Part shown: one piece after another, positions 5,913-11,505 of the stretch
Position numbering within the stretch: the stretch's first letter is position 1
Layout of the letters: each line of letters opens with the position of its first letter
Origin: Candidatus Iainarchaeum sp.
GTDB taxonomy: Archaea; Iainarchaeota; Iainarchaeia; Iainarchaeales; CSSED10-239
Reading direction: 5' to 3'
DNA: 12,877 bases
Assembly (NCBI GenBank): GCA_028700905.1
Contig: JAQVRT010000019.1
Span: forward strand, 1-12,877
Made by a program: the position numbers and the translations under genes
Notes under the pieces: model-generated
The model's database searches: none
Seen by the model: only the letters and a program-made list of their open reading frames with translations
What the model was told of the DNA's origin: nothing

Positions 5913-6923
5913 TTATTTAATATTTAAAATATTTAAAAGCCTATAACAATTTGCATGCTTTGCATAACCTAAAAAAGAAAAAAGAGAAGACCTGAAGTTA
6001 AGTAAAGGCATTTTCTTTTGTTTTAGTAAATAATTATTTTTATTTTGTCTTTTTACAAATCTTTTAATGTTTGATTTTCTTAATCGTACAAAAGAGGAAA
6101 ATACCTTATACCCTAAAAAGTCAACACCTTTAGAAGTTAGGTTTGTATAACTTTTATTTTTAGGAACTGCTAAAAACAAATCTTTTTTTAGAAATAATTT
6201 TATTTTTCTTCTAAAAACCTTTAAATCTCTTTTAGAATCAGAAAATATTAAAAAATCATCAACATACCTATAATAATGTTTAATTTTTAAAGTATGCTTA
6301 ACAAATTGATCTAATTGATTTAGATAAATATTTGCAAACAATTGAGAAGTTAAATTTCCAATTGGGATTCCTTTTTTATTGTTTAAAGAAGAAAAAGAAT
6401 AACTATCTATTATTTGATAGATTATAGATAATAGTTTTTTATCTTTAATTTTTTTATAAATTATACTTTTTAAAACATCTTTATCTATTGAAGGAAAATA
6501 TTTCTTAACATCTTGTTTTAAATAATATTTTGGAGGGTTTTTTGATTGAACTAATTTTTTAATTTCTAAAAAACCTTTAAAAGTGCCTTTTCCTTTTCTA
6601 CATGCAAAAGAGTTGTTTATAAAAGATTTATCAAAGATAGGTTCAATGATGTTTATAATTGCATGTTGAACAACAACATCTCTAAAACAAGGGGCACTAA
6701 TTATTCTTTCTTTAGGTTCATATACCTTAAAGTTTCTGTATTCTGAAAAAGTATATTCTTGGTTTATTAACTCTTCTTGTATTAAAAAAAGTTCTTTTTC
6801 AAGATTGGTTGTAAACTTTAGAATATATTTTTTATTAGGGTTTGATTTTCTTGCTTTTTTATAGGCATTAAAAATATTTTTAAAAGAAGTGAATTCTTGC
6901 CAAAGGTTATTGTATGATTTCAT
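5913..6923 (-). CDS. Reverse transcriptase, diversity-generating retroelement (DGR) clade
   Basis: 336 aa with RT motifs in order. They are YRNFKVYEPKERIISAPCFRDVVVQHAI (motifs 1/2), ACRKGKGTFKG, KQDVKKYFPSIDKDVL (motif 3), GIPIGNLTSQLFANIYLNQLD (motif 4), YRYVDDFLIF (motif 5, YVDD catalytic box), VDFLGYKV (motif 7), then LRKSNIKRFVKRQ and a C-terminal SFLGYAKHANCYRL. The [ILV]GxxxSQ form of motif 4 is the DGR hallmark. The block-by-block resemblance to Bordetella phage BPP-1 Brt, as I recall it, also favours DGR over retron or group II intron RTs. There is no maturase/X or endonuclease domain. Confidence 0.85.
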   Translation of the reverse strand: MKSYNNLWQEFTSFKNIFNAYKKARKSNPNKKYILKFTTNLEKELFLIQEELINQEYTFSEYRNFKVYEPKERIISAPCFRDVVVQHAIINIIEPIFDKSFINNSFACRKGKGTFKGFLEIKKLVQSKNPPKYYLKQDVKKYFPSIDKDVLKSIIYKKIKDKKLLSIIYQIIDSYSFSSLNNKKGIPIGNLTSQLFANIYLNQLDQFVKHTLKIKHYYRYVDDFLIFSDSKRDLKVFRRKIKLFLKKDLFLAVPKNKSYTNLTSKGVDFLGYKVFSSFVRLRKSNIKRFVKRQNKNNYLLKQKKMPLLNFRSSLFSFLGYAKHANCYRLLNILNIK

Positions 6924-7157
6924 TTTTAAAAAGCCTTATTTAAAGTTAAGAGTTATTACAGATTTCTTTTTACATACTATAAAAATACTAAATGTAATAA
7001 CTTATCTTTATATTTGATTTTTTAACATAAAAACAAAATAGTTTTTATGGCACACATTATGTGCAATCAAGAAACATTTTACAGATGTAGTTTTTTAAAA
7101 TATTCGCTTTATATGTTTTTTTAAAACAAAAAAATAAACATACAAACTCTGATAAAA

Positions 7158-7180
7158 CCTCATTATTAAAAATAATAAGG
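7158..7180 (-). other. Stem-loop 5 nt downstream of the target-gene stop codon (candidate DGR VR-flanking hairpin and/or transcript terminator)
   Basis: Arms 7158-7167 and 7171-7180, loop 7168-7170. In minus-strand sense it reads CCTTATTATT-TTT-AATAATGAGG: 10 bp with one U-G wobble. It is followed in that sense by TTTT (complement of 7154-7157). Confidence 0.45.
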
Positions 7181-7185
7181 AGAAA

Positions 7186-8595
7186 CTACTTGACACAGCG
7201 CAGGCCGATGCGGCGGTCCCGGGAACCAGGAGTGTCGAGCAAGGTCAGGCTCAAGACCCCAGCATCAGTGCCATGGCCCCAGTGACCACCGCGCAGAAAC
7301 GCGTATTCAGCAGTAGAAGTGTCTCCAACATCACTATAAGTATAAATTCTACCAACACCATTATCTGTTGCATTATAAGTATTACTTGTAAGTAAAAATA
7401 AATCTTTATACTTTAAAGTGGTATTACCTAAATTATCAGAAGAAATATATTGGTTTTCTCCACCACCTTTGGAATAATCAAAATAATTAAAACCAGTAAT
7501 AAAGTTACTATCATCGGCATTATTAAAACCATCAGGTTGATCTTTTCTTTGTATTGTGTCACTTGTCCATTGTCTTACATTACCGGCTAAATCCCAAATA
7601 ACTTCACCATTAGTTAAAGTTAAGGTTCTTCTTTGACTCCCTGAGCTTTGGCCAGTTCCTGCATAACCATTTGTATCAATTGAAGCTTCTAAAGCTCCTC
7701 CTGGTGTTCCATCGTTATGTCCTGAATAAATATATCCCTGACCAACAGTTCCAGAAGACCAGTTAGATGGAACTTGTTCTATGTTTCGTACAATAGTCAT
7801 CCATTCATTGTTTGTTATTAAATGACCACCTATAGCTTCACAAGCAGCAATAGCTTCGGTTTGGGAAATTCTTGTAACAGGAGAGCCTTCAGGAGTTGAT
7901 ACTAATGTACCAGGAGTAGGGCATAATTCATAACTATAAGTATTATAGGTTAAAGAACCGGTATTACAATCAGGATAATCTGCTACAAGATTTCCTTTAC
8001 CATCTCCATTAACATCCATTTTCATCTCATATTTTGAAACACAAAAACCACCATTTTCATTCATAGTTCCATATAAATGATTACCAGGAACAGGAATGTA
8101 ACCTTCTGGACAAGAAGAAGGTTGTTTTATGGTTTGTAAAATATTATTCTTAGTGATCATTCTGTCATTATCAAGATAAAAAACAATATTTAAATTGTCT
8201 TCTAAAATACCATGGTCAATTACGGCAGATTGGTTTGCAGTTATTGTGATTGGAGGGTCTATAGGGTTAATATTAGTATTACCAAACAAACTATAACCAG
8301 TTATGGTTAGAGAAGTGTGAGGAGAACCATAAGGAGGTTTATATTCTAAAATGGTACGACCATTTATTGAGGTTTTTAAATGTAAATAAAAAGAAGTTTC
8401 TGATTCAGTGAAAATCTCAAGACCAGAGGCTTTGGAAAGAGAATCATTGGTAAAACCTTTTCCCCAAGAAATAATTATACCAATTATAGCAACAGCAACA
8501 ACAACTAAAAGAATAGTGGCTATAAGAGGACTTATAGCTTTTCTTTTTTTAAAAAAAGTTATAAAATAATTACCTTTAATCATAATAATCTGCAT
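7186..8595 (-). CDS. DGR target (variable) protein: archaeal type IV pilin-like N-terminus plus C-terminal FGE-sulfatase (SUMF1) / C-type-lectin-fold domain
   Basis: 469 aa. The N-terminus, KKRKAISPLIATILLVVVAVAIIGIIIS, matches the archaeal class III signal and Pilin_N pattern ([KR]-A-[IV]-S-P-[VIL]-I-x-x-[IVL]-L). From about residue 160 it shows FGE-sulfatase blocks: CPEGYIPVPG, GFCVSKYEM, ISQTEAIAACEAIGGHLITNNEWMTIVRN, GNVRQWTSD and a terminal LRGGHWG...RIGLRCVK. It lies directly upstream of the DGR-type RT on the same strand. The start is ambiguous between M1 (8595) and M5 (8583). Confidence 0.8.
   Translation of the reverse strand: MQIIMIKGNYFITFFKKRKAISPLIATILLVVVAVAIIGIIISWGKGFTNDSLSKASGLEIFTESETSFYLHLKTSINGRTILEYKPPYGSPHTSLTITGYSLFGNTNINPIDPPITITANQSAVIDHGILEDNLNIVFYLDNDRMITKNNILQTIKQPSSCPEGYIPVPGNHLYGTMNENGGFCVSKYEMKMDVNGDGKGNLVADYPDCNTGSLTYNTYSYELCPTPGTLVSTPEGSPVTRISQTEAIAACEAIGGHLITNNEWMTIVRNIEQVPSNWSSGTVGQGYIYSGHNDGTPGGALEASIDTNGYAGTGQSSGSQRRTLTLTNGEVIWDLAGNVRQWTSDTIQRKDQPDGFNNADDSNFITGFNYFDYSKGGGENQYISSDNLGNTTLKYKDLFLLTSNTYNATDNGVGRIYTYSDVGDTSTAEYAFLRGGHWGHGTDAGVLSLTLLDTPGSRDRRIGLRCVK
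7189..7326 (-). other. Putative DGR variable region (VR) including a GC-rich IMH-like 3' end: the last 46 codons of the target gene
   Basis: Hand count gives 81 of 130 nt G+C (62%) for 7191-7320, against 13/60 in 7131-7190 and 19/60 in 7321-7380. Coding-strand adenine is only 16/130. There are no AAY codons, and the codons around the invariant Trp are all NNY (CAC TGG GGC CAT GGC ACT GAT GCT). The island maps exactly onto the ligand-facing C-terminal segment (RGGxW...G[FL]RC) that is the VR in CLec-fold DGR targets. Confidence 0.7.
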
Positions 8596-8708: not shown

Positions 8709-8924
8709 TTATTTTGTTTTTTTAACAAAATAATCAATATCTTTTCCAATACTTGAAAAATCAACCTTAACATTATTTACAGCCATTTTATCTAAGAAAT
8801 CTTTATAAGATATACCTGCAATATCTGCAGCCTCTGATAAAGACAGGCTTTTATTTTCATAAGCCTTAAAAACAATAGCAAGCCTAGATTCATCTATATT
8901 AGAAGTAATATTTGTTTTACTCAT
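8709..8924 (-). CDS. UPF0175-family-like small helix-turn-helix protein (antitoxin-like)
   Basis: 71 aa. LAIVFKAYENKSLSLSEAADIAGISYKDFLDKMAVNNVKV resembles the UPF0175 pattern (...Y..G.lSlg.AAelaGms...F...L...gi). No PIN or other toxin ORF is adjacent. Confidence 0.5.
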   Translation of the reverse strand: MSKTNITSNIDESRLAIVFKAYENKSLSLSEAADIAGISYKDFLDKMAVNNVKVDFSSIGKDIDYFVKKTK

Positions 8925-11480: not shown

Positions 11481-11505
11481 CTCCTTTTTTTAAAAAATAG
11501 AAAAA

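Follow-up and report, generated by a model that had tools for sequence, protein, structure and literature searches.

Diversity-generating retroelements (DGRs) are abundant in DPANN archaea and in bacteria of the candidate phyla radiation (CPR), where they are assumed to diversify attachment proteins. In the largest survey, archaeal and CPR DGR targets typically carried no recognisable transmembrane or other conserved domain, and whether they are membrane-bound or surface-located was left open (Roux et al., 2021, PMC8144416); most epibiont DGR targets "remain entirely uncharacterized" according to a 2022 review (PMC8867640). In the known DGR systems with a C-type-lectin (CLec) target, such as Mtd of a Bordetella phage, TaqVP of Thermus (5VF4), TvpA of Treponema and LdtA of Legionella, the variable repeat (VR) encodes the extreme C-terminus of a C-terminal CLec/formylglycine-generating enzyme (FGE) fold, next to a DGR-type reverse transcriptase (RT). 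A pilus-associated adhesin of the type V system in Bacteroides owes the diversity of its ligand-binding part to a DGR (bioRxiv 10.1101/2024.11.15.621889), and the modular pilins of bacteria carry a grafted effector on a small pilin module, which probably exposes it at the tip of the filament (Raynaud et al., 2021, PMC8179133). Here we describe a gene that appears to unite these themes, the open reading frame (ORF) 7186-8595 on the minus strand of contig JAQVRT010000019.1. The contig was analysed over its whole length of 12,877 nt, hereafter the window, in whose coordinates positions are given; the nearest kin of its source organism are DPANN archaea of the Diapherotrites (Ca. Forterrea multitransposorum and Ca. 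Iainarchaeum), in keeping with the DPANN-type cell assumed in an original prediction made from this DNA. We propose that the ORF likely encodes an archaeal modular type IV pilin-like adhesin. What is new in this reading is an archaeal modular pilin whose effector module is the DGR variable domain, which extends to archaea a concept described for bacteria.

The features of the target gene and its surroundings on which the comparison draws are as follows.

8536 to 8595, minus strand: leader peptide, residues 1-20 (MQIIMIKGNYFITFFKKRKA), ending with K19 (-2) and A20 (-1) at the predicted prepilin-peptidase cleavage site
8464 to 8535, minus strand: mature N-terminus, residues 21-44 (ISPLIATILLVVVAVAIIGIIISW), the hydrophobic alpha-1 of the pilin-like module (TIGR02537, AlphaFold2)
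8137 to 8385, minus strand: Ig/FN3-like beta-sandwich, residues ~71-153, the globular part of the pilin-like module (AlphaFold2 strands with a predicted local distance difference test score, pLDDT, >90)
7189 to 8112, minus strand: FGE-sulfatase/CLec-fold ligand-binding domain, residues ~162-469 (Pfam, Foldseek)
7186 to 7303, minus strand: VR, with which the gene ends, its stop codon being part of the repeat (comparison with the Ca. Forterrea template repeat)
7145 to 7185, minus strand: post-VR sequence, corresponding to the downstream flank of the relatives' template repeat and marking a fusion of the two repeats (flank alignment)
5913 to 6923, minus strand: intact DGR-type RT of 336 amino acids (aa) (RVT_1 at 80.5 bits; YVDD and IGNLTSQ motifs)

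With the CLec systems the window protein shares the C-terminal CLec/FGE fold, the VR at its extreme C-terminus, the adjacent RT and adenine-specific differences, here against the template repeat (TR) of an orthologous locus. Its relatives keep the gene order target, accessory ORF, Avd, TR and RT, whereas the window is without TR and Avd. Export would also differ, through a class III signal rather than the lipoprotein signals of TvpA and LdtA or the place of Mtd in a phage tail fibre. The Bacteroides system is set apart by its type V pilus, its lipoprotein-type processing and its gut bacterial hosts, and the work describing it deals neither with type IV/class III signals nor with archaea. PilB (vWA module) and PilC (lectin module) of Streptococcus sanguinis likewise consist of a class III-signal carrier and a bulky ligand-binding effector, and bacterial modular pilins, which are proposed to be tip-exposed, resemble the window family in joining one carrier to many effectors across paralogues. 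Unlike them, the window protein has an archaeal leader (K/R at -2, no GFxxxE) and falls outside IPR012902; the survey that defined them covered bacteria only (PMC8179133), and the effector is here a retroelement-hypermutated one instead. Finally, archaeal type IV pilins (8FK7, 6W8U and Sulfolobus UpsA; substrates of PibD/FlaK) share with the window protein a basic residue at -2, a small one at -1, an alpha-1 of ~20-25 residues with no Glu at +5 and an Ig-like beta-sandwich after the helix, as well as, in relatives, an A24 peptidase and a T2SSE ATPase. They differ from it in size and setting, as the mature window protein has ~449 aa, carries an FGE/CLec graft of ~300 aa whose C-terminus is the DGR VR, lies outside any pilus operon and scores below the threshold of Pfam Pilin_N.

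The prepilin-type signal is the best-marked element of this architecture. Positions 8464-8595 (minus strand) are the first 132 nt of the ORF and encode residues 1-44 of a 469-aa protein; gene callers place the protein start at M5 (8583), giving a protein of 465 aa (P0001) and a leader of 16 rather than 20 residues. The original prediction had recognised an archaeal Pilin_N-type pattern in residues 16-44, and its letters are exact: they read KKRK/AISPLIATILLVVVAVAIIGIIISW, that is K16 K17 R18 K19 / A20 I21 S22 P23 L24 I25 and so on to W44. A basic residue at -2 and a small residue (G/A/S) at -1 are decisive for the archaeal class III signal peptidase (SPase III), the basic -2 being archaea-specific (Szabo and Pohlschroder, PMC3387779), and K19 and A20 are residues of precisely these kinds; class III assignments were made with a regular expression of our own and the criteria of that paper. 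Residues 18-48 score 22.6 bits with the NCBIfam model TIGR02537 (archaellin/type IV pilin N-terminal domain; curated cut-off 20, E = 5.6e-5), the model of the UpsA pilin likewise matches the N-terminus, and the bacterial TIGR02532 (prepilin N-methylation, GFxxxE) does not match the protein, whose motif is archaeal. The segment after the cleavage site (residues 21-44) has a Kyte-Doolittle mean of 3.2 and is the sole hydrophobic stretch in the protein. As an internal negative control served the ORF 877-1719 on the minus strand (KKKSSIKRRNKLIVKLILIIIV...), which also combines a basic patch with an N-terminal hydrophobic helix: it matched no pilin model, and an ordinary basic and hydrophobic N-terminus is therefore insufficient for such a match.

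Conservation among relatives points in the same direction. A search of 5.8 billion proteins returned 1034 homologues, several of which bear the JGI/NCBI names "flagellin-like protein" or [quoted passage not shown]. When 60 full-length homologues of 40-84% identity were aligned, the residue at -2 proved to be K/R in 59, and all 60 have A/S/G at -1, I/V/L at +1, S/E/T at +2 and P/A/S at +3; TIGR02537 matches 40 of them individually at E <= 0.01. Mean pairwise identity is highest in the segment from -2 to +28 (0.69), as compared to 0.41-0.51 in the folded domains and 0.22 in the leader. Such conservation of alpha-1 in sequence would be unlike a plain membrane anchor, which would be expected to keep hydrophobicity only. 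We consider it quite probable that the N-terminus is a genuine archaeal class III signal.

Structure prediction places a pilin-like domain directly behind this signal. An AlphaFold2 model of the full-length protein, built on the 60-sequence alignment and numbered as P0001, reached a pLDDT of 88.9 and a predicted template modelling score (pTM) of 0.84, and comprises a helix (19-51), a beta-sandwich (67-149) and a large domain from ~160 to the end; in the numbering of the 469-aa ORF, alpha-1 extends to about residue 55 (down to position 8431). When this model was compared to the Protein Data Bank (PDB) using Foldseek, the Thermus DGR variable protein TaqVP (5VF4) came first (E = 5.6e-10), with formylglycine-generating enzymes and the Bordetella Mtd below it in the list, as well as two archaeal type IV pilins. 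For residues 1-157 modelled separately (pLDDT 85), the best two matches were the pilins of Pyrobaculum calidifontis (8FK7, 8fk7_A, E = 4.4e-4) and P. arsenaticum (6W8U, 6w8u_A), both aligned over their whole length with probability 1.00. At the sequence level, phmmer against the PDB matched 8fk7_A over residues 17-115 (E = 0.006) and TaqVP (5vf4) over residues 431-466, and the C-terminal domain matches Pfam FGE-sulfatase at 37.2 bits. The pilin-like beta-sandwich that had been anticipated after the helix is thus borne out by the model, the best PDB matches of this part being archaeal type IV pilins.

The N-terminal module appears to be a reusable pilin carrier. Among 1.84 billion cluster representatives, a profile built from residues 1-157 matched 1444 proteins when the limit was E <= 1e-3 and 207 when it was E <= 1e-10, and the match was always N-terminal. 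Some of these proteins consist of the module only and are pilin-sized (P0430, 140 aa; P0438, 147 aa; P0439, 156 aa), and longer ones reach 1134 aa with other C-terminal domains, more than 10 other fused domain types being found. Among 58 proteins scanned for their C-terminal domains, 20 carried GLUG repeats, 7 Peptidase_M26_N, 5 CHB_HEX_C/Fn3_assoc, 4 each RCC1 propellers, Lcl_C and PKD, 3 Laminin_G_3 (a ConA-like lectin) and 2 each Kelch and FGE-sulfatase. Because the module occurs alone as well as with GLUG, RCC1, Kelch, PKD or lectin domains behind it, we interpret the window protein as an archaeal "modular pilin", in which a pilin carrier module would hold a grafted effector module. On a Forterrea-type contig (L003 8515-13288), a near-identical class III leader and alpha-1 are common to three genes in tandem (494, 445 and 617 aa), which look like a cassette-like family of surface proteins. 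The outer two genes of this trio have ~170 N-terminal and ~60 C-terminal residues in common, and their middles differ.

Genes for processing and assembly were sought in the window and in related genomes. No A24 peptidase is encoded in the 12.9-kb window, which is the whole contig. In the Iainarchaeum genome GCA_964526055.1, one contig of 671,531 bp contains a syntenic ortholog of the target (P0006, 77% identical) together with an A24 peptidase (P0124) and a T2SSE ATPase (P0259). In the genome of Ca. Forterrea multitransposorum (CP045477.1), the A24 peptidase P0499, which was found on 40 contigs and is named "prepilin peptidase" by NCBI, has a catalytic Asp pair (in WTDYK and GGGDVK) that aligns with D18 and D79 of FlaK (3S0X). 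This same peptidase is the one whose Peptidase_A24 gene lies 8 kb downstream of the tandem trio on the contig of paralogue P0040 (L003), and a second T2SSE gene lies 4.7 kb from the 742-aa paralogue P0091. The original prediction had been made to depend on prepilin peptidase and assembly genes occurring in the genome: in close relatives both the A24 peptidase and the T2SSE ATPase are found, but not a platform gene beside the ATPase.

Several results weigh against the modular pilin reading, and two other explanations draw on them. The match of Pfam Pilin_N to residues 19-61 reaches 15.6 bits and falls short of the gathering score of 25.2 (search with the N-terminal 161 residues), and homologues with an A-L-E-P variant are not matched by TIGR02537. 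N-glycosylation sequons, whose enrichment would have pointed to an extracellular location, number 5 versus 6.4 expected and show no such enrichment. The TM-scores of the pilin matches are low (0.34-0.40), and generic FN3/Ig domains rank next and score nearly as well. No pilus genes are present in the window or within 10 kb of the orthologues, no platform (T2SSF/FlaJ/TadC-like) gene is recognisable beside the T2SSE ATPases in L009 and L004, and neither TR nor Avd is found in the window, a point to which we return below. The low Pilin_N score, the long leader (16-20 residues) and the proneness of short hydrophobic hidden Markov models like TIGR02537 to compositional matches would all be compatible with an ordinary uncleaved signal-anchor (type II) or a Sec/SPase I signal, whose pilin likeness would be a by-product of a basic patch followed by a helix. 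This would leave unexplained why the K/R at -2 and the small residue at -1 are essentially invariant in the 60 homologues when the rest of the leader is 22% identical, why the same N-terminus is common to proteins with unrelated C-terminal domains and to pilin-sized proteins, and why the window's other N-terminal anchor resembles no pilin model. No AxA-type SPase I site follows the helix and the cognate A24 peptidase is present in relatives; with the near-invariance of -2 and -1, these led us to reject both the Sec/SPase I signal and the plain signal-anchor, an explanation that we hold to be very improbable.

A second explanation accepts cleavage of the class III signal but not the fibre, the protein being a lectin anchored to the cell surface by its hydrophobic N-terminus or held there in a short bindosome-like oligomer. 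The mature protein, with its ~449 aa, is about three times as large as a structural pilin, the gene and its orthologues are not flanked by pilus assembly genes, and the module is common to many paralogues with bulky C-terminal domains; besides, archaeal class III signals also occur on non-pilin substrate-binding proteins, the sugar-binding proteins of the Sulfolobus bindosome (PMC3387779). The module, however, also exists as stand-alone proteins of 140-156 aa that are structurally like filament-forming pilins, alpha-1 is conserved in sequence and not just in hydrophobicity, as would fit helix packing in a filament core, and bacterial modular pilins of similar size do enter fibres (PMC8179133). 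We rate the purely surface-anchored lectin as rather unlikely.

Under the modular pilin reading, the precursor would enter the membrane by its N-terminal hydrophobic helix, and an A24 class III signal peptidase of the PibD/FlaK type, as suggested by the motif and by the enzyme of the relatives, would cut between A20 and I21 and remove the basic leader. According to the structure prediction, the mature protein then consists of the alpha-1 helix, a small Ig-like beta-sandwich acting as carrier and the FGE/CLec domain of ~300 residues, of which the last ~40 residues, as comparison with orthologous TRs shows, are encoded by the DGR VR. Type IV filament machinery (T2SSE ATPase and platform) would extract the protein from the membrane, possibly as a low-abundance or tip subunit because of its size of ~3 times that of a structural pilin; alternatively, a bindosome-like assembly may keep it at the surface. 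In both cases the hypervariable pocket would face outward and could serve as a fast-evolving attachment ligand, and in sister genomes an Avd/TR/RT cassette rewrites this pocket by adenine mutagenesis. Export and display of the binding domain probably go through the pilus pathway, and we put the chance that the protein becomes part of a filament instead of staying at the cell surface a shade below even. As to the type of export and the lineage, the original prediction was largely right, and the fibre display that it proposed is plausible. A prepilin-type signal and pilin module on an archaeal DGR-target family would provide such targets with a concrete route of export and display, through an A24 peptidase and type IV filament machinery.

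In the contig as assembled, the retroelement itself is incomplete. A 150-nt stretch (7150-7299) has a GC fraction of 0.53 versus ~0.2 in its flanks, and the last 118 nt of the target gene lie in this GC-rich stretch. Repeat finding, blastn with a word size of 7 and an adenine-tolerant sliding scan yielded no TR anywhere in the window. Compared to the locus-1 TR of Ca. Forterrea, the repeat at the end of the target shows 97 matches, 17 mismatches at template adenines and 4 elsewhere, and we take the surviving repeat to be the VR because its mismatches are mostly at template adenines (17/21). In a syntenic locus (L001) with a target 84% identical, the order is target, 128-aa ORF, bAvd, TR and RT, and the VR/TR pair of 123 nt has 16 differences, all at TR adenines; the Forterrea cassette (L002) has the same layout, with bAvd between target and TR in both. 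The 128-aa ORF between target and bAvd (L001 11679-12065; L002 11681-12067) is conserved, has no Pfam match and may be an uncharacterised DGR accessory gene. In a comparison of window 7145-7303 with L001 11278-12602, window positions 7299..7183 (minus strand) align to both the VR and the TR of L001, and the intervening 1085 nt (L001 11399-12483), which hold the 128-aa ORF, bAvd and the TR, are absent. The flank after the window stop codon is identical to the Forterrea TR flank at 35 of 41 positions and to its VR flank at 15 of 45. Hence, of the designation of this gene as "the DGR target", the VR, the CLec fold and the intact adjacent RT stand, whereas the TR and Avd are missing from the window: for this contig, the assignment of the signal peptide is right and the assembled cassette is incomplete.

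The fusion of the VR to the TR flank is either a recombination deletion between VR and TR or an assembly collapse. In relatives, ~28 bases at the 3' ends of VR and TR are identical, and the window breakpoint lies exactly there, where an assembler might have jumped from VR to TR while the cassette in the genome is intact and active; this explanation concerns only the status of the DGR. That the RT is intact, that L001-like and Forterrea-like segments alternate on the contig in a fine-scale mosaic and that de novo assemblies of Ca. Forterrea omit blocks between repeats (Probst and Banfield, PMC5905446) all speak for an artefact. On the other hand, frequent homologous recombination is reported for the lineage (PMC5905446), the product of a true VR x TR crossover would be no different, and real decay of the cassette is seen in a sister genome. 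We therefore treat an assembly artefact as a serious candidate, if a little short of probable. The decay in question concerns GCA_964526055.1 (contig CAZGHU010000001.1, ~351-379 kb), in which the RT is split into fragments of 142 aa and 86 aa and neither Avd nor a VR/TR pair was found (L007/L008), an independent decay of the same cassette. The two loci form a tandem duplication of ~6.35 kb, whose unit includes the 3' part of the helicase gene, the UPF0175 gene, the target gene and the decayed DGR.

As assembled, the window cassette cannot diversify its target on its own, and only an assembly artefact behind the loss, or a second cassette working in trans, would keep the pocket from being frozen. 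Ca. Forterrea carries two complete DGR cassettes on paralogous class III-signal targets (L013, CP045477.1 625-639 kb; L011, 19-32 kb), and the TRs of these are nearly identical at their 3' end. An orphaned VR like that of the window might in principle be served in trans by such a second cassette.

The window DNA matches now one relative, now the other. Compared to L001, the genes for the proteasome subunit, FttA and AAA_18 show 99.4-99.8% DNA identity, and those for Hel308 and TruD only 88-89%. The RT is 96% (95.9%) identical to L001 and 81% to Forterrea, and the adjoining spacer (6924-7185) is 80.5% identical to L001 and 97% to Forterrea. This mosaic fits homologous recombination as reported for Ca. 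Forterrea, or a chimeric assembly of strains.

The proposed link between pilin-type export and DGR diversification was followed beyond this locus in a survey with one genome per GTDB species, comprising 78 loci with relatives, in which N-termini were classed by regular expressions of our own. Relatives with an archaeal class III N-terminus were present at 11 loci, 6 of them with an RT within 6 kb, and the bacterial GFxxxE prepilin motif was found at 20 loci, 5 of which had an RT within that distance. Adenine-biased VR/TR pairs ending at the stop codon of the target occur at five independent archaeal loci, in orthologues and paralogues with the class III signal (the loci listed are L001, L002/L011, which are the same locus, L013, L015, L017 and L020), so that the link, initially drawn from the window alone, recurs. 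Such pairs were also found at four bacterial loci, three from Saccharibacteria and one unclassified (L047). The targets there (L036 5608-6969, L047 5386-6870, L055 2044-3549 and L061 5596-6753) have canonical prepilin leaders of the form GFT(L/I)(I/V)ELL, all four pass TIGR02532 at 29-31 bits (cut-off 16.3), and each has a C-terminal CLec VR with an RT nearby. In L012 (Iainarchaeum) and in L031/L035, an RT is present and no convincing adenine-biased repeat was detected. No RT lies within 8 kb of P0113 (L010), a double-FGE pilin-like protein from a bacterium; therefore, not all pilin-FGE fusions are DGR targets.

A homologous lectin module and cassette is thus joined to domain-specific pilin leaders in DPANN archaea and at least in Saccharibacteria. 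Type IV pili mediate host association in Saccharibacteria. The parallel with the DGR-targeted GFxxxE pilins of the bacterial loci suggests that the pilus may carry a variable tip programmed by a retroelement. We tentatively suggest, as a possibility that goes well beyond the window, that DGR-diversified modular type IV pilins are a shared strategy of ultra-small episymbionts in both domains, with one FGE/CLec module and its Avd/TR/RT cassette placed on archaeal pilin modules (Diapherotrites/DPANN) and on GFxxxE pilin modules (Saccharibacteria and other CPR). If true, the pilus tip would be a programmable host-recognition ligand in two domains, an exchange of the variable module between the domains would be implied, and the point left open for DPANN and CPR DGR targets without recognisable export or membrane signal (Roux et al., 2021) would find an answer. 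Archaeal type IV filament systems are the subject of a 2026 preprint in which adhesin-like proteins and DPANN systems come up but neither retroelements nor lectin/FGE pilins do, and a literature search that excluded Paul et al. (2017) retrieved no paper describing archaeal class III signals on DGR targets.

The remainder of the contig, which is AT-rich, carries archaeal housekeeping genes, among them those for a Hel308-type helicase, TruD, FttA/aCPSF1, a proteasome subunit and an FKBP. A gene of the UPF0175 family (antitoxin-like; 8709-8924, minus strand) lies just upstream of the target in all syntenic loci, and in Forterrea a DDE transposase gene is inserted between the two (L002 8881-9843). 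Between the genes for TruD and DUF5654, L001 and L007 hold an extra gene of 94-96 aa and a ParE-like toxin gene that are not in the window (comparison of window 11481-11505 with L001 6436-7064). Just past the point corresponding to the TruD end of the window, the eRF1 gene of the relatives contains an intein with a LAGLIDADG endonuclease (L001 2054-4591; L002 1489-4026).

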